Assembly (NCBI GenBank): GCA_964634005.1
Contig: CAZWKQ010000012.1
Span: 13,306 to 77,305, forward strand
Reading direction: 5' to 3'
DNA from: an uncultured Bacteroides sp.
GTDB taxonomy: Bacteria > Bacteroidota > Bacteroidia > Bacteroidales > JACABE01
DNA: 64,000 nt
Below are positions 4,311 through 63,358 of the stretch, piece after piece. A program made the translations under genes and the position numbers. Below the pieces are notes generated by a model. That model saw only the letters and a program-made list of their open reading frames with translations, was not told where the DNA came from and made no database searches. Numbering within the stretch: the first letter of the stretch is position 1; each line of letters starts with the position of its first letter.

Positions 4311-5441
4311 TCAACTTTTTCTTAGTTTAATCCAAAAAGTGGTACCATCGATTTCAGAAGTATTAAAACCAACGCTTCCTTTGAGATATCTTTCGGTAAG
4401 CAGTTTAATTGAATATGTTCCTAAACCTCTGTTGCTCCCCTTAGTAGAAAAAGATCTTTGAAATACTTGCAACTGAACATCACGAGGCATAAAAGATTGG
4501 TTATGAACACTGAAAACAACATCATTATATTCAAGTCTGCAATTTAAAGTAACAATATTATTAATACTTGAAGCCTCTAAGGCATTTTTTAATAAGTTTA
4601 TCAATACTCGTTTCAATAAAAGTTCATCAGTAGTAAATTCAACATCAATAGCCTGATTTGAAATTGTAATCTTTTTATTTCTCGAAACGCTATGATTACT
4701 AAGATATTTAGAAACATCAAAAAGAATTTTTAAAGATGATATTTTCGCCATTTCGGGTTCAAGTTCGCCTTTTTCGGCAGCAGTTAATGCCCGTTGCGAC
4801 TGTATTTCCTCTAACAATTCACCGCTCAATTGGTCTAAAACAGGTATATTTTCTTTAATTTCTTTAACATCGTGAGTTTCTGCAAGCATTTCAGTAAGAC
4901 CTTTTAAACCGCCGGCAACATTTATAATATCATGAAAAAATATTTTCTCGAGCATCTGCTTTCTCTTAAAATCGCTGATATCATCAACAGTGAGGATGGT
5001 ATAAACATTTCCTTTGAAATTGAACGGAGTGCATGTTACTTGTAAATCTAAATATTCATGTTTATCATCAACAAGTGTAATTATACGACATTCTCTTGTA
5101 ACTTTTGAATTAGTTTTCTGACTTTCAATAATAGCATTAACAGCACCACAATACTTGCAATTTTCGGAAGTACCGCAACCGGCTTCCATCAAACTTGAAT
5201 GCACGCATTTTATTGCTTCTCCGGGTCGAAAACCAAGTATGCCGTCTTTATCGATTATGCTCAGGAAATTAAGCAATGTATCATTTGCAAATACTATTTG
5301 CCTTTGAGGATTGAGAATGGCAGCAATATCGGGCAGTGCATTCATAATCATTTTAACATAATCGTCCTGTTGAATTATATTATTATCATTTAATATTTGT
5401 TCTTTTGGGGCTCTTTCGGCAGGTGCATGATATGTTTCCAT
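4311..5441 (-). CDS. Cytoplasmic sensor histidine kinase with Cys-rich PAS-like input domain
   Basis: H-box FFHDIIN; N-box NLLKNALEA; G-box FSTKGSNRGLG; N-terminal PAS-like region with C79, C89, C95, C98. Confidence 0.88.
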   Translation of the reverse strand: METYHAPAERAPKEQILNDNNIIQQDDYVKMIMNALPDIAAILNPQRQIVFANDTLLNFLSIIDKDGILGFRPGEAIKCVHSSLMEAGCGTSENCKYCGAVNAIIESQKTNSKVTRECRIITLVDDKHEYLDLQVTCTPFNFKGNVYTILTVDDISDFKRKQMLEKIFFHDIINVAGGLKGLTEMLAETHDVKEIKENIPVLDQLSGELLEEIQSQRALTAAEKGELEPEMAKISSLKILFDVSKYLSNHSVSRNKKITISNQAIDVEFTTDELLLKRVLINLLKNALEASSINNIVTLNCRLEYNDVVFSVHNQSFMPRDVQLQVFQRSFSTKGSNRGLGTYSIKLLTERYLKGSVGFNTSEIDGTTFWIKLRKS

Positions 5442-5465
5442 ATATTTTTATTAAACTAATTAATA

Positions 5466-5473
5466 CAAAAATA
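5466..5473 (-). promoter_or_regulatory. Bacteroidota sigma-A -7 element (TATTTTTG) upstream of the kinase gene
   Basis: Exact match to TAnnTTTG about 25 nt upstream of the ATG. The motif is short and AT-rich, so chance matches are possible. Confidence 0.5.
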
Positions 5474-5502
5474 GTAAAATAAATTCAACTTTCACGTCAA
5501 TA

Positions 5503-6273
5503 TTAAAGTTCAATTACTTGACTGTCATACGCAAGATTAATGTAATCTGGTAATCGGGCATTAACATCTTCGTGCTTTCCGATAAAATGGCTTACATGAG
5601 TAATAAAAGCTCTTTCGGGTTTAAGTTCTTCAATAATTTCGACTGCTTCGCTCAAAGAAAAATGAGAAACATGTTTTGAATTTCTAAGTGCATTCAAAAC
5701 AATAACTTTTGAATTGGCTATTTTTTCTTTTTCTTTTTCGGAGATATAACTTGCATCGGTGATATAAGTAAAATCGCCTATTCTATAGCCGAAAATAGGA
5801 AGTTTTTCGTGAATTACTTCAATAGGTATTATTTCAATATCGTTGATGAAAAAAGGCTTGTTTTCGATATTATGAATATTTATTTGCGGAGCGCCGAAAT
5901 AGCGAGCCGATTCTTTAAAAATATAAGGAAACTCAACCTTTATTGCTTCCATTACTCTTTCGATACCATAGATATCAATTTTTTTATTAAGGACATAATT
6001 AAAAGCTCTTACATCATCAAGACCTGCAATATGGTCACGATGCTCGTGCGTAAATAATACGGCATCAAGATTAGAGATATTTTCTCTAATCATTTGTATT
6101 CTAAAATCGGGGCCACAATCTACAACCAAGGATTTATCATTTACTTGAATGTGAATAGAAGCCCTAAAGCGTTTATCTTTTTTATCATCCGAAGTACAAA
6201 CCGGACAATCGCAAGCAATAACAGGCACACCTATTGAAGTAGCAGTTCCAAGAAAGGTAACTTTTATTTTCAT
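5503..6273 (-). CDS. MBL-fold metallo-hydrolase (PhnP/YcbL-like phosphodiesterase)
   Basis: GTATSIGVP...CDCPVC N-terminus, THEHRDH metal motif, YITD, HFS, THVSH. Confidence 0.88.
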   Translation of the reverse strand: MKIKVTFLGTATSIGVPVIACDCPVCTSDDKKDKRFRASIHIQVNDKSLVVDCGPDFRIQMIRENISNLDAVLFTHEHRDHIAGLDDVRAFNYVLNKKIDIYGIERVMEAIKVEFPYIFKESARYFGAPQINIHNIENKPFFINDIEIIPIEVIHEKLPIFGYRIGDFTYITDASYISEKEKEKIANSKVIVLNALRNSKHVSHFSLSEAVEIIEELKPERAFITHVSHFIGKHEDVNARLPDYINLAYDSQVIEL

Positions 6274-6306
6274 TATATTTTTTCTAATTGCAATTTTTCC
6301 AACTAA

Positions 6307-7248
6307 TTAATAAATCAATTCATCTATTGTTTGTTTGTCGTACATAAGTTGTTTTCTCATATCATCTTTATCGTTGAAATTTTTTAATTCTCGAATCCGT
6401 TTATGAAAAAAAACAGTTGCGGTTTTACCAACCAAACATTGGTCAATATCAAATAAATGCATATCAATACATATATTAGGCTGATTAATTTGAAATTTTG
6501 AAGGAGCATGCCTAATATTTAGCATCCCCTTAAAATAGCATTCATTTGAAGTTAAACTGATGGCATAAACTCCCTCGGGAGGAATAAGTTTTATATCCTC
6601 GTCAATAAAAATGCTCATGGTAGGCAAACCAATATTTTTTAATACTTCGCTACCTTTAGTCAATTCCCCGATAATAATGTACTGATGATCGAGATAAGCA
6701 TTGGCTTTTTGAATATCGCCTTCGTGTAATGCTTTTCTTATTTTTGTAGAACTTACAGTTTCATTTTGTATGTCTTGTTCGGGAATTTCTTCCACATCAA
6801 AACCTTGAATCTTCGATAATTCATAAAGCGAGTGATAGTTACCTTCCTTATTATGGCCAAAATAATGGTTAAATCCGACAATAATTTTACGGGCATTTAC
6901 TTTTCCGAGAAGAATATTTTTGACAAAATCAATAGAAGAAGTCTGAGCAAATTCTCTTGTAAAATTAATTATTATCAAATTATCGAGACCTGCTTTACGA
7001 AGGAGTTCAATTTTTTCGCGTTGAGAATTAATAAGCAGAAGGTCTTTACCTTCGGTTTCCGGATATAGAACTCTACGCGGGTGCGGATGAAAAGTAATAA
7101 GAACCGACTCGCCCCCGATTAATTTTGCAGATTTTCGCAATCGGTTTATTATAGCTTTATGTCCTATATGAACTCCATCGAAAGAACCGGTAGTTACAAC
7201 AGCATTTTTTATATCCTTAATATCCTCGATATTTCTGAAAATTCTCAT
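6307..7248 (-). CDS. ribF: RibF-like FAD synthetase with degenerate riboflavin-kinase domain
   Basis: Adenylyltransferase motifs GSFDGVHIGH, FHPHP and VSSTKIR are intact. The C-terminal kinase motifs are altered (PTMS, NIRHAPS, IDMHLFD). Confidence 0.8.
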   Translation of the reverse strand: MRIFRNIEDIKDIKNAVVTTGSFDGVHIGHKAIINRLRKSAKLIGGESVLITFHPHPRRVLYPETEGKDLLLINSQREKIELLRKAGLDNLIIINFTREFAQTSSIDFVKNILLGKVNARKIIVGFNHYFGHNKEGNYHSLYELSKIQGFDVEEIPEQDIQNETVSSTKIRKALHEGDIQKANAYLDHQYIIIGELTKGSEVLKNIGLPTMSIFIDEDIKLIPPEGVYAISLTSNECYFKGMLNIRHAPSKFQINQPNICIDMHLFDIDQCLVGKTATVFFHKRIRELKNFNDKDDMRKQLMYDKQTIDELIY

Positions 7249-7256
7249 ATTTTTTT

Positions 7257-7910
7257 CTATGCGGTTAATTCATTTTTTTTGACAAAGTAGGCAACTTTTT
7301 CTAAAGAAGTAATCATATCGTATTCTTCGAGAAAAATATGAGAAGAAACGTTAACAGGAGATGGAGTGAAATTTAAAATCCCTTTAATTCCTGAAATAAC
7401 AAGGTTTTCGGCAACTTTAGCAGCTTCGGATGCGGGAACAGTAATAATACCTATTGTTATATTTTCTTTTTTAATTATTTCCTGAAGTTTATCGTAAGAA
7501 TAACAATGTACGCCGGCATAAACTCTGTCGACCTTTTCGGGATTTGTATCGAAAGCTGCAACAATTGACAATTTTGTTCTTTTACCTTTAAAATAACTGA
7601 TTATTGCTCTACCCAAATTACCAACACCCACAACGGCAACCTTTTGCCCGTCTTCGCTATCAATAATATCACCAATTAAATCAATTAATGCTTGAACATC
7701 ATACCCTTTTCGCAAGGTTCCCGAATATCCTATAAGCATAATATCCCTACGTACCTGAACAGGGGTTATATGAAGCAAATTGGCTATTTCGTGCGAATAA
7801 ATATGAGTCTTACCATTTGCTGCACATACCAACAAATTTCTGCGGTACTGACTAAGTCTTTCAACTGTTTTATCGGGTAATTTTTTTATTTCTTTCACTT
7901 TTGTTATCAT
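7257..7910 (-). CDS. rex: Redox-sensing transcriptional repressor Rex
   Basis: TVERLSQY, QVRRDI...GY winged helix, Rossmann VGVGNLG, GILNFTP. Confidence 0.95.
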   Translation of the reverse strand: MITKVKEIKKLPDKTVERLSQYRRNLLVCAANGKTHIYSHEIANLLHITPVQVRRDIMLIGYSGTLRKGYDVQALIDLIGDIIDSEDGQKVAVVGVGNLGRAIISYFKGKRTKLSIVAAFDTNPEKVDRVYAGVHCYSYDKLQEIIKKENITIGIITVPASEAAKVAENLVISGIKGILNFTPSPVNVSSHIFLEEYDMITSLEKVAYFVKKNELTA

Positions 7911-7923
7911 TATTTTAAAATAA

Positions 7924-9048
7924 TTAGATATTCTTTGGTAATGTAATTGTAAATACCGACCCTTTTTCAGGTGAACTCGAAACTGTTATATTTCCTTCAT
8001 AAGAATCGATAATTTTCTTAACTATAGATAATCCTAAACCACTTCCTGAAATATTTTTAGTTTTTTGATTTTTAATTCTAACAAACTCATTAAAAAGTTT
8101 CGACATATCGTCTTCAGTCATTCCAATTCCATTATCACTTACCGTAATAGTAATATTTTCTTCTTTTTCTTTGATAAAGCAATCTACTCTGCCACCTTTT
8201 TTGTTATATTTTATAGCATTAGAAATCAAATTATTAAATACAATTTCCATTTCTCTTTCATCAGCATTATAATAAATACAGTCCTTACAATTTAAATAAA
8301 CTTCAACATCATTTTGTATTGCAAAAGGATTCATGGCATCTTTCGATATTTTAGCAATTTCGCATAAATTTATCTGTTTTATCTCTCTGTTTGATACTCC
8401 TGATTCGATTTTTGTAAGGTCGAGCAAATCCATTATTAAAGAACGCATACCGTTAATTCTCTCAATAGAACGTTCGATATTATTTTTATAATCGTCAATA
8501 TTATCGCCGAGTTGTTTTTCCAACATCATTTGTAAATAGCCTTCAATAGCATTCAGCGGAGCTTTCAATTCGTGAGAAAGTACCGAAAGGAATTGAAAAC
8601 GAACTTGTTTGCCGACAGTATTCAATCTTTTGGTCATTCGGCGGAAATAAACCTGTTTGGTTATAGTTTCGATTGATGAACGAAGTTCCTGAGGTGTGAA
8701 TGGTTTGGGAATAAAGTCAAAAGCTCCGTTTTTGGTTGCTTTTACTGCAACGTCTAATGATGCATAAGAAGTAATCATTACAACAAGTATGTCGAGATGA
8801 TTTTTGCTGACATACTCCAAAACCTCCAACCCTTGTATTCCGGGCAGCTTATTATCGAGCAGCATAATATCGGGTAGACCGGTTTTGAGGTATTCTATGG
8901 CATCTTCACCGGTAGGAGCCTCAATTATTTCAAATTTACAGGCCTCATCCATAAAAGGATATGAAACAGAAAAATCACGTAATACGCGCGACACACCCGA
9001 ACGGATTCCGGGTTCGTCGTCTACAACCATTAATTTGATTATTTCCAT
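7924..9048 (-). CDS. Hybrid REC-HisKA-HATPase signalling protein
   Basis: N-terminal receiver (VVDD, LLDNKLP, KPF), then H-box SHELKAPL, NLISNAIKY and GSGLGL. Confidence 0.92.
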   Translation of the reverse strand: MEIIKLMVVDDEPGIRSGVSRVLRDFSVSYPFMDEACKFEIIEAPTGEDAIEYLKTGLPDIMLLDNKLPGIQGLEVLEYVSKNHLDILVVMITSYASLDVAVKATKNGAFDFIPKPFTPQELRSSIETITKQVYFRRMTKRLNTVGKQVRFQFLSVLSHELKAPLNAIEGYLQMMLEKQLGDNIDDYKNNIERSIERINGMRSLIMDLLDLTKIESGVSNREIKQINLCEIAKISKDAMNPFAIQNDVEVYLNCKDCIYYNADEREMEIVFNNLISNAIKYNKKGGRVDCFIKEKEENITITVSDNGIGMTEDDMSKLFNEFVRIKNQKTKNISGSGLGLSIVKKIIDSYEGNITVSSSPEKGSVFTITLPKNI

Positions 9049-9051
9049 TAC

Positions 9052-9435
9052 TTAAATCTTTAACAACTTATTTATTTCTCTTTGTAACTGATCAGAACGT
9101 ATGCCTTTATCCATGTATAAATCAGCCTTTATCCATTTACGTTCTTCTTCCGAATGAACGTCGAAACTCATGCCGGTTTCGGCTGTTACGGCTGTTGCAA
9201 TTATTATGGGTACATCAGGATACTTCCTCTTCATTTTATAACTTAAAACGAAGCCGCTATCTTCATTCTCCATCATCAAATCGAAAATTGCCAAATCGGG
9301 TTTAAACGACTCCAAAAGTTGTTCAGCTTCATATTGACCATCTGCTGTTATTACTTCGAAACCTAATTTTTCTACTTTAAGTTTCATTTGATACAAGTAA
9401 TCCATGTCATCGTCAACAATTAAAACCTTTTTCAT
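9052..9435 (-). CDS. Single-domain response regulator
   Basis: VDDD, FDLMM, TAV, DKG; no output domain. Confidence 0.9.
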   Translation of the reverse strand: MKKVLIVDDDMDYLYQMKLKVEKLGFEVITADGQYEAEQLLESFKPDLAIFDLMMENEDSGFVLSYKMKRKYPDVPIIIATAVTAETGMSFDVHSEEERKWIKADLYMDKGIRSDQLQREINKLLKI

Positions 9436-9472
9436 ATTTTTATTTTATTAAAATTTATTTTCATTCATTTTA

Positions 9473-9480
9473 CAAAGTTA
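9473..9480 (-). promoter_or_regulatory. Internal -7 promoter element (TAACTTTG) upstream of the receiver gene
   Basis: TAnnTTTG match overlapping the hydrogenase-kinase stop codon, about 37 nt upstream of the ATG at 9435. Confidence 0.45.
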
Positions 9481-11466
9481 TTCCGACTTATACCTTGGTA
9501 AAGTAATAGTAAATGTGGTTCCAGTCGGGCCTTTTTCTATATCTGTGTTAGATTTAATGTCAACTTTACCTTTATGCATTTTAATGATACCGTAAATTAT
9601 AGGTAATCCTAAGCCTGTGCCTTTTCCAATACCTTTAGTTGTGAAAAAAGGAGTAAAAATTTTCTCCATATTTTCGGGAGCAATACCTGTACCGGTATCG
9701 GAAATTGAAAATATAATATCATCATTTTTCTCGGCAATATTAATATTAATTTCTCCACCATTTTCGGGCATTGCTTCTATTGAGTTTTTAATCAGATTAG
9801 TAATTACTTGTACCATTTGGTCGTAGTCTATCATAGCCATTTTATTCTTAAGTTCCGAATTAAGATTTATGGTAACGTTTTCAGGACATACTACCGATTG
9901 AATGCTACGTTCAAACATATTTTCAATATTAATCTCAGAGTAATTAAGTTGATTTTTCCTTGCAAAATTCAAAAGGCCGGACACTATTTTTTTACATCTG
10001 TCAGTTTGTTCTACAATCAGCTCAAGGTCTTTTCTTATAGGATCATCTGGATTACATTCGTCTTTCAGAATATTGCTGTACATAGTAATAACTCCAAGAG
10101 GATTATTTAGTTCGTGAGCAATTCCGGCAGAAAGCTGTCCCATATGTGCTAATTTTTCCGATTGTTTTAAGGCTAACTGTGCAGAAGCAAGTTTTTCGTT
10201 CGATACAGCCAAATCTTTTATGTATTTATGCAATTTCTCAATTGCATAAGGGAGGCACATTTCTTCTTCGGCAAGTCCTTTTATAATGGCTATAGCATGC
10301 TCATTGCATGAATCATAACCGCAAGCACCACAGTTTAGATGATCTTTTTCACTAAATTTACCCAACGATTTCAAAACTTCTTTTACTTCTTCCCAACTTG
10401 GGTCAGGAATTCTCCTGTCGTTGGCTACAAATGTTTGTGTTAAATCTATATCGCTATATTTTTCTATTTCTTTGAGCCATTCATCATTATCAATATTTTT
10501 GAGTTTTTGCTTAACATAACTACTTACCATAGTACGTCGGGCAAATCTTTTACCATTGGGCGAAGTACCCGGCCCCATAATACATCCTTCGCAACATAAT
10601 AACTCGAGATTATTATAACGTATCAACCCATTTTCAAACTCTTTAATGGCTTCACGAAAATCGACCCTTCCATCGGCAACAATAACATTGCCCTCGTATA
10701 TGTTTTCAGTAACATCAGTAGTTTGCAATAATCCTCTAGAAATCGGGAATATTGCTCCTTTTCCGGCATGAGGCGGATCAAACTCTGACGGAGTTACGTT
10801 TTCGCGTTTTATTCCAGAAATTTTAAACATTTCTCTGAGTTCTCTGAAAGTAAGTACTTCATCTAATTCGTCCGATTCTGCCTTTTTTGCAATACAAGGA
10901 CCAATAAAAACGACTTTTATGTCATTACCATACTTTTTCTTAACAACCCTTGTCATAGCAACCATTGGAGATGCAATAGGAGCAAGATATGGAACAAGAT
11001 CGGGGCTATAATGCTCAACATAAAAAGTAATTGCAGGACAATCGGATGATATTATTCCTTCACTGCCTTTTCTTTTAAATAAATTTGAATATTTTCTTGC
11101 AACCAAATCAGCTCCGAATGAAACCTCTGACACATAATCGAAGCCTAATGCTTTAATCATTCCTACAAGCAGCTTATAATCTTTTATTTCCTCAAATTCG
11201 GCAGGAAAACTTGGAGCCAGTAAAGCTATTTTTTTTGAATCAGATTTTAAAATAGAATAAACTTCGTCAGTTGCTTTCAAAAATGTTTTAGCTTCCTGTA
11301 CACAAACCTTAACGCAATTTCCGCAACCAATACATCTTTTATCGATAACTTCGGCCTGACCATTAACAATTTTAATGGCTTTGACGGGACATTCTCTGAC
11401 ACAAGTATAACAAACCCGACATTTATCGACTATTGTAAAAACCAATTGGTGTTTATGAGCCGGCAT
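9478..11466 (-). CDS. Sensory [FeFe]-hydrogenase fused to histidine kinase (group C, kinase-linked)
   Basis: Two [4Fe-4S] ferredoxin motifs; H-cluster motifs SSDCPA, GPCIAKKAE and ELLCCEGCIMGP; extra FeS domain NCGACGYDSC...MC; HisKA AHELNNPL; HATPase FFTTKGIGKGTGLGL. Confidence 0.9.
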   Translation of the reverse strand: MPAHKHQLVFTIVDKCRVCYTCVRECPVKAIKIVNGQAEVIDKRCIGCGNCVKVCVQEAKTFLKATDEVYSILKSDSKKIALLAPSFPAEFEEIKDYKLLVGMIKALGFDYVSEVSFGADLVARKYSNLFKRKGSEGIISSDCPAITFYVEHYSPDLVPYLAPIASPMVAMTRVVKKKYGNDIKVVFIGPCIAKKAESDELDEVLTFRELREMFKISGIKRENVTPSEFDPPHAGKGAIFPISRGLLQTTDVTENIYEGNVIVADGRVDFREAIKEFENGLIRYNNLELLCCEGCIMGPGTSPNGKRFARRTMVSSYVKQKLKNIDNDEWLKEIEKYSDIDLTQTFVANDRRIPDPSWEEVKEVLKSLGKFSEKDHLNCGACGYDSCNEHAIAIIKGLAEEEMCLPYAIEKLHKYIKDLAVSNEKLASAQLALKQSEKLAHMGQLSAGIAHELNNPLGVITMYSNILKDECNPDDPIRKDLELIVEQTDRCKKIVSGLLNFARKNQLNYSEINIENMFERSIQSVVCPENVTINLNSELKNKMAMIDYDQMVQVITNLIKNSIEAMPENGGEININIAEKNDDIIFSISDTGTGIAPENMEKIFTPFFTTKGIGKGTGLGLPIIYGIIKMHKGKVDIKSNTDIEKGPTGTTFTITLPRYKSE

Positions 11467-11487
11467 ATTTATTTTCTTTTTTTGATA

Positions 11488-12249
11488 TTAATTAAAAGCT
11501 CCCTGCAGATAACTTTTTGTTTTTTCCATTTTCGGATTTTCAAAAATCTCATCGGCAGGTCCTTGTTCTACAACTTCACCCATATACATAAAAACAACAT
11601 GATCGGCAATCCTTCTTGCCTGACGGAGAATATGAGTAACTAAAACAATAGTATATTGCTGTTTCAATTCAACAAATTTCTTTTCAATAACTTCGCTCGA
11701 AATAGGATCTAAAGCTGAAGTCGGTTCGTCGGCAAGGATAATCTCGGGATCGACAGCCAAACCACGTGCAAGGCACAAACGCTGCTGCTGTCCTATTGAC
11801 AGTTTGGAAGCAGGTTCGTGAAGTCTGTCATGAACTTCATCCCAAAGACTTACAATTTTCAAATAGTTTTCAACTCTTGCACTTAAAGCTTTTTTGTTTC
11901 TTCTTCCGCTAATTTTCAATCCGTAAGCAACATTATTAAAAATATTCATCGGCAAGGGATATGGTCTTTGCGAAAGCAATCCCATCTTCTTTCTTATCTC
12001 AGTTACATCGGTTTTTGTATTTAAAATATCTTCATTGTCAATCAAAATATTTCCGCTTATTTTAGCATCGTGATACAAATCGGTCAATCGGTTAAGACAT
12101 TTTAAAAGCGTAGTTTTTCCGCAACCTGATGGACCTAATATAACTGTAAGCTTATTCTCAGGAATTTCTATATTAATATTTTTCAGAATATGTTGTTTCC
12201 CTATGAAAAAATTTAGGTTATCGATTTTTATTTTAGCGTTGCTTGTCAT
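11488..12249 (-). CDS. pstB: Phosphate ABC transporter ATP-binding protein
   Basis: Walker A GPSGCGKT, LSIGQQQRLC, ADEPTSALDP. Start reassigned to the ATG at 12249, just after the pstA stop. Confidence 0.93.
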   Translation of the reverse strand: MTSNAKIKIDNLNFFIGKQHILKNINIEIPENKLTVILGPSGCGKTTLLKCLNRLTDLYHDAKISGNILIDNEDILNTKTDVTEIRKKMGLLSQRPYPLPMNIFNNVAYGLKISGRRNKKALSARVENYLKIVSLWDEVHDRLHEPASKLSIGQQQRLCLARGLAVDPEIILADEPTSALDPISSEVIEKKFVELKQQYTIVLVTHILRQARRIADHVVFMYMGEVVEQGPADEIFENPKMEKTKSYLQGAFN

Positions 12250-12250
12250 G

Positions 12251-13099
12251 TTATTGTATTCTGTTTTTATAATATTTTTTTGATAATGCTCTTGAAAATA
12301 CACTAATAATCAGTATTATAATAGTTAAAATAGCTGCACTGGCATAAGCACGGTTTTGAACTTCAGGTACAGGCGAACTGAGTTGGAAAAAGATAGATAA
12401 AGGCAGAGTAGCAGCAGGTTCGAGCAAAGAAGTCGGAATATTATCGGTATATCCTGCAGTAAACAGCACTGATGCTGCATCTCCAATCGCACGTCCGAAT
12501 GAAAGTAATATTGCAGTTACTATTCCCGAAAACGACTGAATAAGAACTACTCTGAACGAAGTTTCTGTTTTTGTTGAACCTAACGAAAAAGCTGCTTCGA
12601 GTAAGCCAACAGGAGTTGTTTTCAGAACTTCGTCACAAGCCCTTATCATTATTGGTAAAACAAACAAAGTAACAGTGATAATACCAGCCAATAACGAAGT
12701 TTTTATTCCCAGAAAAACCATTAATCCAAAACCAAAAGCTCCATAAACTATTGAAGGAACACCCCATATTAAATCGAGTAAAAACCTGAAAAAGTTTAAA
12801 AAGCGTTTGTATTTTATTAGATAAACATTCATAAATAAGGCTACAGGAACGCCTATAACAGTAGCAAGAAAAGTCGCTCCGACTGAAAGATATAATGAAC
12901 CTATTATTGCATTGAGTACACCGCCTTGTTTACCGTAATAATAGCCACCTTGAGGCTTCTGAGTAAGCATTTCCCATGAAAGCGAACTTAATCCCTTTTT
13001 GAAAATACTATAAATGATTAAAAGCAATACAAATAGTATAATCAAATTGCTAAACAACATTAAACCCCTGAAAAAATACTCTTCAATCTTTTTTAACAT
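12251..13099 (-). CDS. pstA: Phosphate ABC transporter permease
   Basis: GVPSIVYG, EAAFSLGST, SFGRAIGD, ATLP. Confidence 0.92.
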   Translation of the reverse strand: MLKKIEEYFFRGLMLFSNLIILFVLLLIIYSIFKKGLSSLSWEMLTQKPQGGYYYGKQGGVLNAIIGSLYLSVGATFLATVIGVPVALFMNVYLIKYKRFLNFFRFLLDLIWGVPSIVYGAFGFGLMVFLGIKTSLLAGIITVTLFVLPIMIRACDEVLKTTPVGLLEAAFSLGSTKTETSFRVVLIQSFSGIVTAILLSFGRAIGDAASVLFTAGYTDNIPTSLLEPAATLPLSIFFQLSSPVPEVQNRAYASAAILTIIILIISVFSRALSKKYYKNRIQ

Positions 13100-13107
13100 C
13101 TCTAAAA

Positions 13108-14004
13108 TCAGTATTTATCGTATCTAATTATAATCATTCTCATTATAGCATTAAAAAACATAACAACTACAAACAAAATTAAAGCAGCAAACATAAGAGC
13201 AGCATCATAATGTGGAATAGATAACATTTCCCCATAGTTATTGGCAATCAAAGCAGGTAATGGATAACCACCGTCAAAAACATTTTTCGGAATTTGGACA
13301 ATATTTCCAACTACCATAAGTACTGCTATTGTCTCTCCAAATGCACGCGCGAAGCCGAAACCAATAGCAGCCATAATTCCGGGCAATGCCTTTTTAACGA
13401 GAACAAACTTAATCGTTTGCCATTTAGTTGCACCCAATGATAATGAAGCTTCTGTCAACTCTATCGGTATTGCTCTGAAAATTTCAATGAGAATATTCAG
13501 AATAAACGGTATAATCATTACCGCTAAAACCAAACCCCCTGCTAATATACTGTACCCCATGGTATTTGCTCCAAAAACAGGTGCTATAACGTTCGAGATA
13601 AATGGGACTATTACTATTACACCCCATACACCATAAACAACCGATGGAATACCGGCCAATATATCTATTACGGGATGAATTATCTTTAAATAAAACTTTT
13701 TTGAATACTGTGTTATTGAAAGAGCAGCGAAAATGCATATAGGAGCCGAAATTACCATTGCCAAAGCAGTAACCCATACCGAACCCATAATAAACGGGAA
13801 AAAGCCAAACTCTTGACTGCTCGGACGCCATACTTTTGAAAACAATAATTTCCCTAACGAATTATCTCTAAATAACATATCAGATTTATAATACAATCCG
13901 GCTCCAAGAATAAATGGCATCAACAACACCACTAATGATGCTATAACCATCCATGCAGTACTTATTCTGTTTTTAGTTTTTCTGTTATAAAATAATACTA
14001 TCAT
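13108..14004 (-). CDS. pstC: Phosphate ABC transporter permease
   Basis: LAGIPSVVYG, EASLSLGATKWQT, RAFGETIAV. Confidence 0.93.
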   Translation of the reverse strand: MIVLFYNRKTKNRISTAWMVIASLVVLLMPFILGAGLYYKSDMLFRDNSLGKLLFSKVWRPSSQEFGFFPFIMGSVWVTALAMVISAPICIFAALSITQYSKKFYLKIIHPVIDILAGIPSVVYGVWGVIVIVPFISNVIAPVFGANTMGYSILAGGLVLAVMIIPFILNILIEIFRAIPIELTEASLSLGATKWQTIKFVLVKKALPGIMAAIGFGFARAFGETIAVLMVVGNIVQIPKNVFDGGYPLPALIANNYGEMLSIPHYDAALMFAALILFVVVMFFNAIMRMIIIRYDKY

Positions 14005-14044
14005 TAATACTTATTAGCTGATAATTAGTAATTTATGTTAACAT

Positions 14045-15034
14045 TTATTTTAATTTTTCAATTTCACTTTTCACTCTTTCATCAGAAAGTTTAACATAAC
14101 CTGCCTCATTAACATATTTTTGTCCGTCAGTCAATACCCATAAAATAAAGTTTCTTACGAGCGATTTCTTTGGAGTTCCCTGAGAAACAAAATACAAAGC
14201 CCTTGAAGGCGGAGACGGATAAACTCCATCTCTGATGGCATTCATTATATCATCAAGAGTTTCATAAACCATTTCTTCTTTATCAATTTTGCCGTTTGAA
14301 TTTATATCAATCGGAACTACATCAATACCTTGATATTTCTTACGTGTATTAATGTCATAAACATAGGCAATATTGTTAAACCCTATACCATTTATATCTT
14401 TTCTTACAGCATCGGCTACACCCGGATCTCCATTTACTCCTATACCTTTAATATCTTCTTGTTTTTTATTTTTTAAAAACTTTGCCCACATTTCGGCAGC
14501 TCCGCAAGCATCAGATCTGGTATAAACATTTATTGGTGAGTTATTTGTAGTTTTATACAACCAACCCCATTTTCTGTAATTTCCTGTAATAAATATCTCA
14601 TAAAAATCATTTTGCTTTAATCCTTTTTCTTTCAAATCTTTCATTATTGGATTTTTTTCATTTACCGTAGCTAAAACAGCATCTTTTGCAACAGCAACAA
14701 ACCAAGCACCTTTTTGCTTTTCTTCATCGCTGATTTCTTTTGAAAACATCCCTAAATCGACCATTTCCGAAAGTGCATCTGTCATTCCTTTTCCGGCTCC
14801 ACCGGCAGATACATTGATTGTAACTTTAGGATGTAGTTTCTGATATTCCTCAGCCCACCTGACTGTCAATGGATAAAGAGCAAATGCTCCCGAAATACTT
14901 ATAGTACCCGATAAACTATCTTTGCCGTCAGTTGATTTATTTGAGCCATTATTGCACGAAAATAACGACATCGACAAAATCAATGTTACTAAAGTAAGCA
15001 CATTTAATGTTTGTTTGATACAATTGGTTTTCAT
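14045..15034 (-). CDS. pstS: Phosphate ABC transporter substrate-binding lipoprotein
   Basis: Lipobox LFSC; SGAFALYP, GGAGKG, YTRSDACG, YP...R.LY. Confidence 0.9.
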   Translation of the reverse strand: MKTNCIKQTLNVLTLVTLILSMSLFSCNNGSNKSTDGKDSLSGTISISGAFALYPLTVRWAEEYQKLHPKVTINVSAGGAGKGMTDALSEMVDLGMFSKEISDEEKQKGAWFVAVAKDAVLATVNEKNPIMKDLKEKGLKQNDFYEIFITGNYRKWGWLYKTTNNSPINVYTRSDACGAAEMWAKFLKNKKQEDIKGIGVNGDPGVADAVRKDINGIGFNNIAYVYDINTRKKYQGIDVVPIDINSNGKIDKEEMVYETLDDIMNAIRDGVYPSPPSRALYFVSQGTPKKSLVRNFILWVLTDGQKYVNEAGYVKLSDERVKSEIEKLK

Positions 15035-15085
15035 TTTATTTATCTTTTTATTTTTTATAATTATTTAACTTATTATTTTTCAATA

Positions 15086-16804
15086 TTATAAAACCTCTCT
15101 TCTTCTAAAATCAGTATATAACATATTTTTGTTGTTTTCTGAAATGTTGAAAAAATTTTGATAAATTTCGTTTACCAAAGGATTTTTATGAGCAAACTTT
15201 ATCGATTCTTTATCATCAACATCATAAATAGCTTTGATTCGCGATTTTACAGCTTCTTTGTTTGAAGGAATAGGTTGTCCGCCACCATTAATGCAACCAT
15301 TTTGACATGACATTACTTCTACAAAATGTATATCATTCCTGCCATTTTTAATCTCATTTATAATTTTTTCGGCATTAATAATATCGCTGACAACAGCAAC
15401 ACCTATATTATAATTTTGAGTTTTAAGAACAAACTCTTTCCTGTTTTTATTTATGGTTCTTAATTCAGTAATTTTATAATTAACCATATCAGAATTATTG
15501 ATAATATAGTAGAGCGTTCGTAAAACAGCTTCGGTGACTCCACCCGATGCAGCGTACAATTTCCCCGAAGAGCTTCGTGTTCCTAAAGCAGCATCTGATA
15601 ATTCCGATTCGATATTCATTAAATCAATTCCGTAAAGCCTTATTAATCGTGCCAACTCTCTTGTAGTAAGGACTGCATCAACATCGGTTATACCTTTATG
15701 GGTCATTTCTTCACGCTGAGCTTCAAATTTTTTAGCAATGCAAGGCATAATGGAAACATTATATATATTTTCGGGCATAAATGATTTGCTTTCGGAATAA
15801 TAGTTTTTAACAAGCATACCCATTATTTGCTGCGGTGATTTTACTTTTGACAAATTTCCGATCATTTCAGGGTGAGTTTGCTCAACATATTTAACCCAAG
15901 CAGGACAGCAACTTGTGAATAAAGGTAAGTTTTCGCCCTTATTTATTCGGTTTAACAATTCATTTGCAACTTCAATTGCGTTAATATCGGCACCTAAGCT
16001 TGCATCGAATACTTTGTGAAATCCAATTTTTCGTAATGCAGCATTGAGCATTCCGTTTATATCTTTACCTGCTTTGATTCCGAATTCTTCGGCAAGTGAT
16101 ACTGTAATAGAGGGGGAATAACTTATTACAACATGTTTATTGGGATTATTTAATGAATCTATTGTTTCAGGTAAATGATCTCTTTCGTAAAGAGCACCAG
16201 TAGGGCAAACCATAATACACTGACCGCAATTTATGCAACTCGATAGATTGATTCCTTTTTCACAAGCAGTAGTAATTTCGCAATATTTGCCTTTCTTAAT
16301 GAAATCAATAGCAGTAACTCCGACAATTTCCTCACATACCCTGACACACCTTCCGCACAAAATGCACTTTTTGGGGTCACGTATCATGCATGAGCCTGAC
16401 CTGTCGGCTTTTTGATTACCTTTTCTTCCGCTTATTCTTCTTTCAAGAACATTTAATTCAATGGCTAACTTTTGTAATTCGCAATTGCCGTTACGTTCAC
16501 AATAAAGACAATCGTCAGGATGATTTGATAACAAAAGTTCAACAATAGTTTTTCGGGCTTTAATTACTTTGGGAGAATGTGTTTTTATCCTCATCCATTC
16601 TTCTACCTGTTGAGAACAACTTGGTACAAGATTCTCATATCCTTCAACTTCTACTGCACAAATTCTACAGGCACCGGATGGAGTAAGGTCTTCCATAAAA
16701 CATAGTGTAGGAACTTTTATTCCATTCCTGTTTAAAGCCATTAAAATAGTTTCACCTTTTTTGGCTTTAATTATTTTATTATTTACTTCTATATCAAATA
16801 CCAT
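15086..16804 (-). CDS. hydA: Group A [FeFe]-hydrogenase H-cluster subunit (HydA/HndD-like), divergent
   Basis: [2Fe-2S], His-ligated [4Fe-4S] (HPDDCLYC...C) and two [4Fe-4S] F-clusters; H-cluster motifs TSCCPAW, MPCIAKKFE and EVMSCQNGCINGGGQP. Confidence 0.92.
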   Translation of the reverse strand: MVFDIEVNNKIIKAKKGETILMALNRNGIKVPTLCFMEDLTPSGACRICAVEVEGYENLVPSCSQQVEEWMRIKTHSPKVIKARKTIVELLLSNHPDDCLYCERNGNCELQKLAIELNVLERRISGRKGNQKADRSGSCMIRDPKKCILCGRCVRVCEEIVGVTAIDFIKKGKYCEITTACEKGINLSSCINCGQCIMVCPTGALYERDHLPETIDSLNNPNKHVVISYSPSITVSLAEEFGIKAGKDINGMLNAALRKIGFHKVFDASLGADINAIEVANELLNRINKGENLPLFTSCCPAWVKYVEQTHPEMIGNLSKVKSPQQIMGMLVKNYYSESKSFMPENIYNVSIMPCIAKKFEAQREEMTHKGITDVDAVLTTRELARLIRLYGIDLMNIESELSDAALGTRSSSGKLYAASGGVTEAVLRTLYYIINNSDMVNYKITELRTINKNRKEFVLKTQNYNIGVAVVSDIINAEKIINEIKNGRNDIHFVEVMSCQNGCINGGGQPIPSNKEAVKSRIKAIYDVDDKESIKFAHKNPLVNEIYQNFFNISENNKNMLYTDFRRREVL

Positions 16805-16829
16805 TTCTTAAACTTTGAAAATATATTGA

Positions 16830-18773
16830 TTATTTAATATAAATTGCACTGAATTTACATGTTTCGAAACATATACCACAACCTATACATTTGCTTTCGA
16901 CAATAAAGTGAGGATATTTAACAGTTCCAATAATAGCATTAACCGGACATTTTCGCATACAAGCATTGCAGCCGGTACATTTTTCTACATCTATATAAAA
17001 AGTTCTTAATTCTTTACAAACACCTGCCCTGCATTTTCTATCGAAGATATGTTCTTCATATTCATCTCTAAACCACTTAAGTGAACTTAAAAAAGTATTA
17101 GCTGCATTTTTTCCTAAACCGCAAAGTGATGTATCTTTAATAACATCGGCAATATTTTCGAGTTGCATTACGCCTTTAAATCTGTCTAAGGTTTGATGTG
17201 AAGTTTCATCTTTAGGAATTTTAGTAATCTTTTCGATTATCTCATACATTCGTTGAGTTCCTTCACGACAGGGAATACACTTTCCACAACTTTCGTGTTG
17301 TATGAAATTTAAGTAAAACTTAGTCAAATCAACCATACAGGTATCTTCATCCAAAACAACAATACCTCCCGAACCCATGAAAGTTCCGGCATTCTTCAAT
17401 TCATCATAATCTATCGTTAAATTAAGATTTTGTTCAGTAATAAAACTACCTGCCGGACCTCCTAACTGTATTGCTTTAAATTTCTTATTATTTTTTAGTC
17501 CCCCTCCTATATTTTCAACAATTTCTGCCAATGTCTTACCCATTTCAACTTCTATCAATCCGTGATTTGCAATTTTTCCGGAAAGAGAAAGAATTTTGGT
17601 TCCTTTGCTGTTTTGTGTACCAATATTTGTAAACCATACAGGACCATTATTAATAATATTCGGAACATTTAGCAAAGTTTCCACATTATTTACAACTGTA
17701 GGCTTACCAAACAGTCCTTTTTCAGCGGGATATGGAGGCCTTGTTCTTGGCATTCCTCTTCTGCCTTCAATACTGCTCAACATAGCTGTTTCTTCCCCAC
17801 AAACAAATGCCCCCGGAGCTTTTTTTATAATTAAATCAAGATTAAATCCGCTATCGAGAATATTTTCACCTATTAATCCCAAATTTCTCGCTTGATTAAC
17901 AGCATTTTTAAGTCTTTCATAGGCTAAAATATTGTCGGAGCGAATATAAACATAAGCTTTGCTTGCACCAATTGCATAAGAGGCAATTGCTATACCCTCG
18001 ATTAATTTATGAGGATTACTTTCAATTAATATTTTCTCCATAAAAGAACCGGGGTCACTTTCATTCGAATTACATATCAAATATCTCTGGTCGGAAGCGG
18101 TTTCGTGTGCCAATTTCCATTTTTGACCCGTCGGGAAACCTGAACCTCCCCTACCCCTTAAGCCACTTTTACTTACAATACGACATACTTCATCAGATGT
18201 ATAATGATAAATCGATTTTACATAAGCTCTGTAACCGCCATTGGCTATAAATTCTTCTATTGATTCTGGATTAATAATACCGTTCAATTCAAGTAAAATT
18301 CTTTTTTGACCGGAGAAAAAAGGTAAATTTTCAATATTATTAATATTGTCCCACTTCTGAAGTTTTTTTTGATTATATTGTCCTATAACATTATCTGAAA
18401 CAATGTTGTTATTAAAAACACCGTCTAATATATTCGTAACCGATTCCGCATCGACATTTTTGAATGATATTCTGCATAATCCCGGCATCTGAACATCCAT
18501 AACAGGCTCTAAATGGCAAGCACCTATACACCCTACACTCACAACTTCGGCATCTATTTTCTTCTCTTTAAGATAAACATTTACGGCCTCTTTCGTTTTT
18601 AAAGCTCCGGCAGCTATACCGCAAGACGAGGTGCCTATATAAATTACAGGTTTTCTTACCGTTTCACGTTTAAGTTGTTTTATCATCTCATCCGCTTCTT
18701 TGCCGGCAGATGTTGTATCGTTTTGTAACACATTTTTAGTTAAAAACTTAATAATATTCTCCATAAAAATCAT
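16830..18773 (-). CDS. hydB: NuoF-like flavin/NADH subunit (HydB/HndC)
   Basis: Thioredoxin-like [2Fe-2S] N-terminus, GLRGRGGSGFPTG, GAFVCGEETA, CGKCIPCREG, LCGLG, two C-terminal [4Fe-4S] motifs. Confidence 0.92.
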   Translation of the reverse strand: MIFMENIIKFLTKNVLQNDTTSAGKEADEMIKQLKRETVRKPVIYIGTSSCGIAAGALKTKEAVNVYLKEKKIDAEVVSVGCIGACHLEPVMDVQMPGLCRISFKNVDAESVTNILDGVFNNNIVSDNVIGQYNQKKLQKWDNINNIENLPFFSGQKRILLELNGIINPESIEEFIANGGYRAYVKSIYHYTSDEVCRIVSKSGLRGRGGSGFPTGQKWKLAHETASDQRYLICNSNESDPGSFMEKILIESNPHKLIEGIAIASYAIGASKAYVYIRSDNILAYERLKNAVNQARNLGLIGENILDSGFNLDLIIKKAPGAFVCGEETAMLSSIEGRRGMPRTRPPYPAEKGLFGKPTVVNNVETLLNVPNIINNGPVWFTNIGTQNSKGTKILSLSGKIANHGLIEVEMGKTLAEIVENIGGGLKNNKKFKAIQLGGPAGSFITEQNLNLTIDYDELKNAGTFMGSGGIVVLDEDTCMVDLTKFYLNFIQHESCGKCIPCREGTQRMYEIIEKITKIPKDETSHQTLDRFKGVMQLENIADVIKDTSLCGLGKNAANTFLSSLKWFRDEYEEHIFDRKCRAGVCKELRTFYIDVEKCTGCNACMRKCPVNAIIGTVKYPHFIVESKCIGCGICFETCKFSAIYIK

Positions 18774-18779
18774 TATAGT

Positions 18780-19238
18780 TTATTGATTCTTTAAACTATC
18801 TATCAGCTCACGAATATCTCCAATTTTAACATTAGTATATGTATGGCCGTTTACTTCAATCACAGGCGATAAGCCACACGAACCCAAGCAACTGACCTGT
18901 TCGATACTAAACTGACCATCTCTGGTTGTTTGTCCGGCACTTATTTTTAGCTCCTTTTCCAACTCTTTTAAAATTACCGACGATTCGTTTAAATGACATA
19001 CCGTTCCATTACATATTTTAATGTGAAATTTACCGTTAGGTTTAAATTTTAAATTATTATAAAACGAAGCAATTCCATATACTTTCGATGATGCCAGATT
19101 AAAATACCTGCTGATTACCGAAATAGACTCTTCGGATAAATAACCCTCTTGCTCTTGAATTTCTGTCATTAAATCGATTAATCCACTTCTATCATCAGGT
19201 TTATACTTTCTTAATATCTCTTCAAAATTTATTCCCAT
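18780..19238 (-). CDS. hydC: NuoE-like [2Fe-2S] subunit (HydC/HndA)
   Basis: KVYGIASFY, ICNGTVCH, SCLGSCGLSP. Confidence 0.92.
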   Translation of the reverse strand: MGINFEEILRKYKPDDRSGLIDLMTEIQEQEGYLSEESISVISRYFNLASSKVYGIASFYNNLKFKPNGKFHIKICNGTVCHLNESSVILKELEKELKISAGQTTRDGQFSIEQVSCLGSCGLSPVIEVNGHTYTNVKIGDIRELIDSLKNQ

Positions 19239-19266
19239 AATTCGCGGAATTATTTTAATTTGTTTA

Positions 19267-19274
19267 CAAAAATA
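19267..19274 (-). promoter_or_regulatory. -7 promoter element (TATTTTTG) of the hydCBA operon
   Basis: TAnnTTTG match 28 nt upstream of the hydC ATG. Confidence 0.55.
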
Positions 19275-19288
19275 ACAGAACTTTTCGA

Positions 19289-19337
19289 TTTAACAATAAT
19301 TATTGTTAAAAAAATAACATTGTTATTTGCTTAACAA
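19289..19337. promoter_or_regulatory. Operator region: 22-bp perfect palindrome plus two tandem Rex-like boxes
   Basis: TTTAACAATAATTATTGTTAAA (19289-19310); TTGTTAA-AAAA-ATAACAT (19303-19320); TTGTTAT-TTGC-TTAACAA (19320-19337). Rex consensus is TTGTGAA-N4-TTCACAA. Confidence 0.65.
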
Positions 19338-60580: not shown

Positions 60581-60943
60581 ATGAAAACAATTTTATTTGT
60601 TGACGACCACGCAAGTATCAGAGAATTAGTCAAAGATGTACTAACGCAAAAAGGATTTGATGTTTTATTAAGTAATGACGGAGAAGACGCAATAAAACTT
60701 TTCGACGGACGCAATATCGATCTTTTAATCACCGACTTACATATGGAAAAAATGAATGGTATTGAACTTACAAAAGAAATCAGGAAAAATTCTGACTATA
60801 AACATATACCAATAGTAGTATTAACCACAGAATCTCAAGTTGAAAAGAAAATTGAGGCTAAGAATGCAGGTGCTACAGGCTGGATAGTAAAACCTTTTGA
60901 TGCCGAAAATTTATTGAAGGTTGTAAACAAATTAATTCGTTAG
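60581..60943 (+). CDS. cheY: Chemotaxis response regulator CheY
   Basis: VDD, ITDLHM, LTTES, GATGWIVKPF. Confidence 0.9.
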   Translation: MKTILFVDDHASIRELVKDVLTQKGFDVLLSNDGEDAIKLFDGRNIDLLITDLHMEKMNGIELTKEIRKNSDYKHIPIVVLTTESQVEKKIEAKNAGATGWIVKPFDAENLLKVVNKLIR

Positions 60944-60950
60944 AAGAATA

Positions 60951-63346: not shown

Positions 63347-63358
63347 ATAAAAAACGAA

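Follow-up and report, generated by a model that had tools for sequence, protein, structure and literature searches.

We analysed a 64,000-nucleotide stretch of DNA from an uncultured Bacteroides sp. (contig CAZWKQ010000012.1), called the window below, in which 14 consecutive minus-strand genes spanning 4311-19238 encode a trimeric [FeFe] hydrogenase (HydC, HydB, HydA), a PstSCAB transporter, a second H-cluster protein fused to a histidine kinase, two receiver proteins (REC and REC-HK), the repressor Rex, a RibF-like protein, a metallo-beta-lactamase (MBL)-fold hydrolase and a PAS-like kinase (Table 1). An earlier note on this sequence had described such a run, with tight gaps, Rex-like boxes at its head and no internal terminator, and this description held. 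The open reading frame (ORF) listing and the Pfam and NCBIfam scans agree on the genes and on the same order, the intergenic spacing ranges from a 2-nt overlap to 61 bp, and tandem Rex-type sites lie at 19303-19337 upstream of hydC. A terminator scan returned 11 terminator-like sites against 8.9 ± 3.1 expected, that is, chance frequency, and every minus-strand site was intragenic, leaving none between minus-strand genes. The same-strand run extends further on both sides, with dpp5 following 39 bp away and three more minus-strand genes (AddB-like, MurU-like and HSDR_N) lying upstream past a 152-bp gap; strand and spacing alone are therefore insufficient to delimit the unit.

Table 1. Genes of the minus-strand run and the control region at its head, in the direction of transcription.
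Feature	Position	Strand	Evidence
hydC promoter/operator region	19267-19337	-	Rex-type boxes A and B, palindrome, -7 box
hydC, NuoE-like thioredoxin-fold [2Fe-2S] subunit, 152 aa	18780-19238	-	PF01257, E = 5e-46
hydB, NuoF-like FMN/NADH subunit, 647 aa	16830-18773	-	PF01512, PF10589, 2x Fer4
hydA, [FeFe]-hydrogenase catalytic subunit, trimeric A3/'A6' type, 572 aa	15086-16804	-	PF02906, E = 6e-85
pstS	14045-15034	-	NCBIfam 129 bits, well below the cutoff of 206.6
pstC	13108-14004	-	NCBIfam 255.5 bits, above cutoff
pstA	12251-13099	-	NCBIfam 211 bits, above cutoff
pstB	11488-12252	-	NCBIfam 331.6 bits, just below the cutoff of 343.2
H-domain/histidine kinase fusion, group C1-type (predicted), 662 aa	9478-11466	-	Pfam/NCBIfam domains
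REC, single-domain response regulator, 127 aa	9052-9435	-	PF00072
REC-HK, receiver-kinase hybrid, 374 aa	7924-9048	-	NtrC-like REC, HisKA, HATPase_c
rex, NADH/NAD+-sensing repressor (predicted), 217 aa	7257-7910	-	NF003995 198.8 bits, cutoff 126; PF06971 and PF02629
RibF-like FAD synthetase, 313 aa	6307-7248	-	below all NCBIfam equivalog cutoffs
MBL-fold metallohydrolase (PRK02113/PhnP-like), 256 aa	5503-6273	-	profile scans
PAS-like sensor kinase, 376 aa	4311-5441	-	profile scans

Homologues of the sensor-kinase proved very abundant, and we compared 86 loci, comprising the best 80 of at least 592 sensor-related stretches (one genome per species) and six obtained by exact-protein look-ups. Genes at these loci were typed by the best BLASTP match of the window proteins against all ORFs; many of the contigs come from metagenome-assembled genomes (MAGs), some are incomplete, and the type labels used below rest on 10-kb flanks. 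Because the loci were picked by sensor similarity, all survey frequencies describe the sample only. The genes hydB, hydA, sensor-kinase, REC and REC-HK were collinear on one strand in 48 of the 52 Bacteroidota loci, and the same collinear core was present in 11 loci from Hydrogenedentota, Planctomycetota (Thermoguttaceae), Myxococcota, Acidobacteriota (Holophagaceae), Melainabacteria, Verrucomicrobiota, Actinomycetota and Spirochaetota (Spirochaetia). The conserved core is thus composed of six genes, hydC-hydB-hydA followed by sensor-kinase, REC and REC-HK. Of the synteny that the earlier note had proposed to survey across Bacteroidota genomes, that of the core is conserved across phyla and that of the whole 14-gene set is not, pstSCAB being limited to a small clade and the PAS kinase to the window and one relative.

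The position of rex distinguishes several arrangements of this core. In 37 Bacteroidota loci, which we call type II and which include the arrangement of the window, rex lies downstream of REC-HK, and the RibF-like gene comes directly after it in 32 of the 33 that extend far enough. Eleven loci of other phyla carry rex upstream of hydC, and 11 full-length Bacteroidota loci (type I) are without rex, most of them (7 to 8) having a NarL-type regulator and a HisKA_3 kinase upstream. The gene for HydG (TIGR03955, 487 bits) was found just downstream of the cluster in 30 loci and that for HydF in nine. Upstream of hydC, 24 of the 37 type II loci encode a second, divergently transcribed sensory hydrogenase of the phosphatase-linked kind, with a TANCP motif, a thioredoxin-like [2Fe-2S] partner of 83-86 aa and, as neighbour, a SpoIIE/PP2C phosphatase (for example, L002 3358-5244 and L085 1-490); this gene is missing from the window, and no PP2C partner of the second H-domain gene was found in its 64 kb. 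Just downstream of the cluster, 10 loci encode a TM1266/CPF_0552-like protein, which is absent from the window. In L066 (16790-17314) and nine other type II loci, some 6.6 kb past the sensor gene, there is a 174-aa protein made of two CPF_0552/TM1266-like ('iron-only hydrogenase system regulator') repeats, likewise absent from the window. L018 and L020 represent separate Rex-linked clusters on different contigs of one MAG (Bacteroidales bacterium fen_982), explained either by duplication or by a bin of mixed strains.

We then considered the region upstream of hydC, where two boxes resemble the 18-bp Rex inverted repeat TTGT(G/T)AA-N4-TT(C/A)ACAA. Box A (TTGTTAAGCAAATAACAA, 19320-19337) departs by one mismatch from TTGTTAAN4TTAACAA and is the sole match at this level in the 64 kb, and box B (19303-19320, 2 mismatches) abuts it. 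At 19290-19309 there is a perfect 20-nt palindrome (TTAACAATAATTATTGTTAA) in which Rex half-sites are inverted ('inside-out'); it overlaps the likely -33 region, and in relatives the half-site on its downstream side is conserved only in part. The classical TTGTGAA-N4-TTCACAA form, allowed 3 mismatches, matched the window at chance level; the TTGTTAA variant alone was informative. A sigma-70 promoter scan was likewise uninformative for Bacteroidota sequence (89 sites against 82 expected), and the TAnnTTTG -7 motif was used instead; since about 0.9 such matches per kb per strand are expected as background, single ones are weak evidence. One such Bacteroidetes-type -7 box (TATTTTTG, 19267-19274) lies 36 nt before the hydC ATG.

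The comparison across loci strengthened the case for these boxes. Of 59 loci, 28 had a box with at most 2 mismatches in the 250 nt before hydC, a set that coincides almost entirely with type II; among random 260-nt windows taken from the same loci the figure was 1.5%. In type I loci, which have no rex, the best box showed 4-6 mismatches, equal to background. Most of the 11 loci with rex upstream have a TGTGA-N6-TCACA-type palindrome 23-81 nt before rex, and seven of the 11 match this consensus with 2-3 mismatches. When the hydC upstream regions of five genomes (the window, L083, L085, L001 and L003) were aligned, the box block was kept while the flanks diverged, and the -7 box was common to the three closest genomes. 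The comparative evidence that the hydC boxes form a putative functional Rex operator is good. Both the winged-helix N-domain and the Rossmann NADH domain were found in the Rex protein, for which NADH-sensitive DNA binding is predicted from sequence, and the location of rex inside the Bacteroidota operon points to autoregulation. Rex sites of the TTGTTAA-N4-TTAACAA type precede hfsABCD, ech and hydG in Thermoanaerobacterium (T. saccharolyticum; PMC5886521), and a Rex regulon with hydrogenase genes has been described in C. bescii (PMC6391272). The window shares with them the type of operator placed before hydrogenase genes, and it differs in having rex inside the hydrogenase cluster, where it is probably autoregulated, and in its Bacteroidota host. 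Rex and HydS have also been proposed as joint regulators of bifurcating hydrogenases in R. albus and S. fructosivorans (PMC10084766), a model that the predicted combination of NADH and H2 control in the window resembles.

The sensor-kinase begins with two [4Fe-4S] motifs (Fer4 dicluster, residues 13-58) and continues with an H-domain, a Cx2Cx4Cx16C motif (C379, C382, C387 and C404; PF04060 at 377-406), a helical linker, HisKA (442-505) and HATPase_c (547-658). There is no PAS domain after the C-terminal cysteine motif, and helices 405-441 run into the dimerisation and histidine phosphotransfer (DHp) helix bearing H451. Its H-domain motifs read SSDCP, GPCIAKKAE and ELLCCEGCIMGPG. The H-cluster cysteines (C143, C191, C292 and C295) are all conserved, and the pocket carries D142 at position 299, G189 at 353 and L290 of ELLCC at 497, the group A glutamates being absent. 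Asp occupies position 299 in about 47 of 55 orthologues, and the motifs SSDCP, GPC and Cx2Cx4Cx16C are conserved among them. In the AlphaFold model (mean predicted local distance difference test score, pLDDT, of 75) the H-domain and the ATPase domain are confident and the linker and DHp regions are low, as expected since the model is a monomer. The top Foldseek matches were [FeFe] hydrogenases (E = 6e-22) and the kinase core of ZraS; no structure of a group C or D sensor was among the matches of the PDB search. These features suggest that the protein is a group C1-type sensory [FeFe] hydrogenase fused to a kinase, and a putative H2 sensor.

HydDB defines group C1 as 'histidine kinase-linked (putative)' sensory [FeFe] hydrogenases (Sondergaard et al. 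2016, PMC5037454), and C1 genes adjoin a group A3 hydrogenase in Hydrogenedentota (21 of 53 genes; PMC11406978) and in Petrimonas mucosa (PMC7768429). The window protein agrees with this group in its sensor-type pocket, its link to a histidine kinase and its A3 neighbour, HydDB membership being predicted from motifs; it goes beyond the published C1 proteins in that the kinase is fused in the same polypeptide right after the Fe-S motif, without PAS, and in the two extra receiver proteins that are always present. The Cx2Cx4Cx16C motif has been described for both group C and group D sensors, and C299A together with M353S/T are hallmarks of TmHydS and TamHydS (PMC8163306), TmHydS having Ala at 299 (PMC6226526). 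With TmHydS (group C) and TamHydS (group D) (PMC8163306, PMC10055695) the window sensor has in common the N-terminal 2x[4Fe-4S], the H-domain and the C-terminal cysteine motif, the replacement of M353 and M497, the loss of the group A proton pathway and genes that adjoin a trimeric hydrogenase. Those sensors signal via a PAS domain together with a phosphatase or lack a fused output, whereas the window sensor has Asp 299 and fused HisKA and HATPase domains. Since a C299D variant of CpI retains 30-80% activity (PMC6226526), its proton transfer still functioning, sensors carrying Asp at this position, and thus C1 sensors, may retain a working proton relay. We found no biochemical study of a C1 enzyme in the literature searched.

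The phosphotransfer residues of this module are all in place, with H-boxes at H451 of the sensor (AHELNNP) and H159 of REC-HK (SHELKAP). REC has the acidic pocket D8-D10, the acceptor D52, T81 and K109, and it is collinear with the sensor in 59 loci. REC-HK combines an NtrC-like REC domain (D65) with HisKA and HATPase_c and is collinear with the sensor across phyla. A functional parallel exists in the [NiFe] regulatory hydrogenase system HoxBC-HoxJ-HoxA (HydDB group 2b), in which a slow hydrogenase serves as H2 sensor and drives a histidine kinase controlling hydrogenase expression. The Hox system differs in its unrelated metal centre and proteins, in having sensor and kinase as separate subunits and in its co-encoded DNA-binding regulator HoxA, which has no counterpart in the window cluster.

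The trimeric HydABC is predicted by its type to have bifurcating H2/NADH/ferredoxin activity. HydA combines Fe_hyd_lg_C with the small-subunit domain, its best NCBIfam model is NF040763 ('NADH-dependent [FeFe] hydrogenase, group A6'; 687 bits, cutoff 765), and it matches T. kivui HydA1 (8a6t_A) at E = 2e-153. Its H-cluster motifs are TSCCP, MPCIAKKFE and EVMSCQNGCINGGGQP, and the ligands C300, C355, C500 and C504 are all there. HydB has an N-terminal cysteine-bearing domain and C-terminal 2x[4Fe-4S], contains the motifs GRGGSGFPTG, GAFVCGEETA and ESCGKCIPCREG, and matches bifurcating-type HydB/NfnB structures at E = 2e-188 to 4e-181 (7q4v_B, 4e-181); HydC has a Cx4C...Cx3C motif and NuoE-family NCBIfam matches just under cutoff. 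The bifurcating enzymes of T. kivui, A. woodii and T. maritima (8a6t, 7q4v/8a5e, 7p5h) have these same three subunits and cofactor-binding motifs, and the window enzyme is unlike them in two places. The first is residue 279 of HydA, whose numbering equals that of CpI up to about residue 361. This residue is Val instead of the Glu of the proton pathway C299-E279-S319-E282(-R286), of which the other four members are present. HMMER and MAFFT concur on this position with no gap nearby, and V279 is no sequencing error because it also occurs in L083 and L003. E279 has been called strictly conserved, and E279A/Q variants have less than 1% activity (PMC6226526). Canonical residues are otherwise retained (C299, C300, E282, R286, M353, C355, K358, E361, the S319-equivalent Ser, M497 and both distal cysteines). 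The second is the HydB loop, which reads C-N-S-N-E-S-D-P-G in the window and C-N-A-D-E-G-D-P-G in bifurcating enzymes.

The earlier note had claimed that the HydA, HydB and RibF copies all carry non-canonical catalytic residues, and V279, NSNE in place of NADE and the lost RibF motifs described below bear this out; these changes are features of the whole clade. Type II loci kept E279 in 5 of 36 cases, compared with 32 of 32 among all other loci. C299, M353 and K358 were each kept in 10 of 36 type II loci, with Ala in 16, Thr in 19 and Met in 14 at the respective positions, against 31 of 32 elsewhere. The NADE loop of HydB retained its Asp in 12 of 33 (13 having Lys) against 27 of 28. The cluster-ligating cysteines are invariant throughout. 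Pairwise identity of HydA/HydB/HydC was 47/53/43% in type II and 68/70/67% in the Rex-less type I, with equal sensor divergence (58-59%). In Rex-linked HydA and HydB, proton-path and flavin-loop residues that normally do not vary appear to have drifted, with the window as a mild case (E279V, NADE to NSNE). The HydA proteins of many non-Bacteroidota clusters (L043-L061, L080) and of A. woodii (HydA1, 7q4v_A) have TSCSP, with Ser at the ligand position C300, so that 'canonical' HydA is less rigid than the textbook motif.

The RibF-like protein retains its FMN adenylyltransferase (FMNAT) part, with the motifs GSFDGVHIGH, TFHPHP, GFNH and VSSTKIR conserved in all 31 cluster-linked copies. Its riboflavin kinase (RFK) part reads GSEVLKNIGLPTMS, with no GxGRG, GLPTMS (PTMS for PTAN) and Asp at the position of E268 (CaFADS numbering). 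The RFK motifs (GxGRG, PTAN, E268) show no consensus among the 31 copies and have decayed in all of them. In the wider RibF family, 118 of 134 representatives have G-x-GR-x-x-G-(F/Y)-PTAN, and those shown also keep the Glu; the 16 without PTAN are mostly among the nearest to the window (roughly at least 49% identity), with a few lower. Because its RFK motifs are degenerate and it scores under every equivalog cutoff, we did not file the protein as a bifunctional RibF (FAD synthetase (FADS) type I). It is like the published FADS-type II and plant-like FAD synthetases, in which PTAN is absent, the N-terminal FMNAT module (HxGH, SSTxIR) is conserved and the C-terminal module is shortened (Yruela et al. 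2010, PMC2972280), and it is unlike them in being full length (313 aa, PF01687 at 186-310), with no shortening of the C-terminus. That paper (PMC2972280) says nothing of the fixed place which the gene has behind rex in these hydrogenase clusters. Since Alistipes putredinis, also of the Bacteroidales, pairs such a FADS-type II protein with a separate riboflavin kinase (PMC2972280), the RibF-like gene may be the ordinary FAD synthetase of these organisms and not a regulatory copy; given this precedent, we dropped a regulatory duplicate as the default reading. No monofunctional riboflavin kinase was found in the 64-kb window.

The remaining genes of the run are less constant. The pstSCAB genes (11488-15034; phosphate substrate predicted, no phoU) are inserted between hydA and the sensor gene, and for pstB the ATG at 12252 is the likely start, in agreement with the 253-aa PstB of relatives. 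They occur only in the window and in L083/84, L085/86, L001 and L003 (72-91% sensor identity); 35 of the 37 type II survey loci lack them, as do all type I and all non-Bacteroidota loci. We infer that pstSCAB is a recent clade-specific insertion riding on the same transcript. The pst genes would then share hyd control; whether this has physiological relevance is speculation. Behind ribF, 9 of the 37 type II loci (about a quarter) have the MBL gene, as do L083-L086; it is a frequent companion and not a constant one. Apart from the window, the survey found the PAS kinase in the 90% relative L083/84 and nowhere else. Its gene has a separate -7 box (TATTTTTG, 5466-5473), and the protein has a sensor domain with a four-cysteine cluster (C79-x9-C89-x5-C95-x2-C98) and the H-box FFHDIINVAGG, to which no HisKA Pfam model matches; a role in sensing redox state through a metal or Fe-S centre is possible. 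We regard the PAS kinase and dpp5 as neighbouring genes outside the conserved unit.

We consider that region 5503-19337 (minus strand) is probably the Bacteroidota version of a multi-phylum cluster, namely a HydCBA operon regulated by NADH and H2 together with an H2-sensing module and Rex. This retains the central element of the earlier note, a Rex-headed cluster joining a trimeric [FeFe] hydrogenase to a putative H2-sensing H-cluster protein that feeds a phosphorelay, which agrees with the domains, the synteny and the conservation of the operator. At low NADH/NAD+, Rex dimers would sit on the tandem operators overlapping the hydC promoter; rising NADH would release them, and the operon would be transcribed with rex included. 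Because rex lies on its own operon transcript, negative autoregulation would follow. The sensor would bind H2 at an H-cluster with a non-catalytic-type pocket (D for C299, G for M353 and L for M497), and electrons would pass to the C-terminal Cx2Cx4Cx16C cluster, tied by the short helical linker to the DHp helix, so that its redox state might gate autophosphorylation of H451. The phosphate would then be accepted by D52 in the small receiver, by D65 in the receiver-kinase, or by both. The RibF-like protein would be a kinase-dead 'type II' FAD synthetase whose gene regularly accompanies rex in these Bacteroidota.

Several observations weigh against this reading. Co-transcription of the 13 genes is something that we infer from spacing and synteny only, and a TAnnTTTG box overlaps the stop codon of the sensor gene, upstream of REC, so that internal promoters are possible. 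No Bacteroidota Rex regulon was described in the literature searched. V279 predicts poor proton transfer, which sits awkwardly with a hydrogenase of purely metabolic role. In the 64-kb window we found neither a HydG nor a HydF homologue, and among its large ORFs no radical-SAM match, in keeping with the statement of the earlier note that the window holds no hydEFG maturases. No DNA-binding response regulator is encoded within the sensor/REC/REC-HK trio in any surveyed locus of any phylum, and the final output would therefore not be local, consisting either of an orphan regulator or of a protein-protein effect of the small receiver.

The last of these points leads to a somewhat unlikely alternative in which the sensor module is non-transcriptional, the phosphorylated small receiver acting in a CheY-like manner on a protein (e.g., HydABC) and the receiver-kinase serving as a phosphate sink or amplifier. 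A small receiver without an output domain, in a trio that has no DNA-binding partner in every phylum, is consistent with this view, as is the control of transcription that Rex, or the NarL-type pair in Rex-less loci, would already provide; orphan regulators may nevertheless be encoded elsewhere in the genome, and the complete kinase core of the receiver-kinase suggests a further downstream substrate. We give a similarly limited likelihood to the view that HydABC is not mainly metabolic but a slow, sensor-like or re-purposed complex of bifurcating origin working with the C1 sensor and Rex. The loss of most canonical HydA and HydB residues in Rex-linked loci, with nearly all kept elsewhere, and the faster divergence of the three subunits than in Rex-less Bacteroidota argue for it, together with the low activity of E279 variants (PMC6226526) when set beside window V279, and with the fact that C299A and M353S/T, recurrent in the class, are hallmarks of the putative sensors TmHydS and TamHydS (PMC8163306). 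Against this, the window HydA is the least changed of its class, keeping C299, E282, S319, R286, M353, K358 and all ligands, and E278 beside V279 might substitute for the missing Glu. In HydB and HydC no cluster ligand is missing and the NADH-site motif is intact, and HydG and HydF often stand beside such clusters, as expected for an active enzyme.

A bolder form of this idea, to which we attach rather little weight, is that the Rex- and RibF-linked HydABC has left the fast-turnover regime, with its proton pathway lost, its [2Fe]-site contacts changed and its HydB flavin loop rebuilt, and may constitute a new functional class. Possibilities for such a class are an NADH/ferredoxin-poised H2 sensor acting with the C1 kinase, or an enzyme using another flavin supplied by the co-encoded FMN adenylyltransferase.

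The model of the earlier note, in which a single 14-gene super-operon uses a three-kinase relay to combine signals of H2, NADH, flavin and phosphate, appears improbable. It is consistent with the tight spacing on a single strand without intergenic terminator-like sites, and with the retention of the pst genes in place in at least five genomes of 72-91% sensor identity. The single 14-gene module with three kinases is contradicted by the PAS kinase, which recurs elsewhere only in the 90% relative and has its own promoter-like -7 box. Phosphate as a sensed input likewise fell away, since pstSCAB encodes a transporter, not a sensor, is missing from 35 of 37 type II and all other loci, and comes without phoU or PhoB; being confined to one small clade, it was rejected as a sensing input. 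Flavin as an input was not sustained either, RibF being a biosynthetic enzyme of a published type (PMC2972280) that fits the FADS-type II pattern and may simply be the FAD synthetase of the cell. It is very improbable that genes with separate functions and promoters have come to lie on one strand here by chance. Same-strand genes do continue past the cluster on both sides and the sigma-70 scan is uninformative, but at least eight phyla share the gene order of the core, Rex boxes are found together with rex, and synteny contradicts this explanation for the core.

Elsewhere in the window, a 1446-aa ORF (30366-34706, minus strand) consists of an AcrB-type resistance-nodulation-division (RND) pump (PF00873, residues 5-1035) followed, from residue 1077, by OEP repeats; it is unusual for an inner-membrane pump to be fused to a TolC-like outer-membrane-factor domain. 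A CheA-like kinase with Hpt, dimerisation, HATPase and CheW domains (61313-63346) lies within 60581-63856 (plus strand), with two 120-aa ORFs before it and one of 165 aa after it, and resembles a chemotaxis-type signalling module. A 975-aa fusion of a FAD-linked oxidase (GlcD-like) with a 4Fe-4S dicluster (23707-26634, plus strand) and a CCG-domain protein (36689-37411) are possible components of a lactate/glycolate-type oxidoreductase. Two long ORFs, of 950 aa (37428-40280, plus strand) and 616 aa (45331-47181, minus strand), had no Pfam match at E <= 1e-5.

With respect to novelty, the earlier note knew of no characterised system of this composition. This is true, but the C1 class, its adjacency to A3 hydrogenases and the Rex-plus-HydS idea had already been published (PMC5037454, PMC11406978, PMC7768429, PMC10084766). 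Among the papers searched we found no description of the constant trio of sensor-kinase, REC and REC-HK, of the pairing of rex with a kinase-dead RibF, of the pst insertion, of two rex positions each with a matching operator, of Asp 299 as a C1 hallmark, or of the systematic loss of proton-path and flavin-loop residues in Rex-linked Bacteroidota HydA and HydB.

To our knowledge, H2 sensing by [FeFe]-type proteins has only been inferred, and we know of no group C enzyme with a demonstrated signalling output. The cluster offers a tractable test case, with two candidate phospho-acceptors encoded beside the sensor; because sensor and kinase are one polypeptide, H2-dependent autophosphorylation would be a direct read-out. 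The comparison also supplies natural 'mutants' for models of proton transfer and of flavin/Fe-S bifurcation, with Asp 299 in the sensors, Val/Leu/Ile 279, Ala 299, Thr 353 and Met 358 in HydA of a bifurcating-type scaffold, and Lys or Asn in the HydB NADE loop. For microbial ecology, these results suggest that abundant anaerobic Bacteroidota may tie H2 production both to their redox state and to H2 partial pressure.

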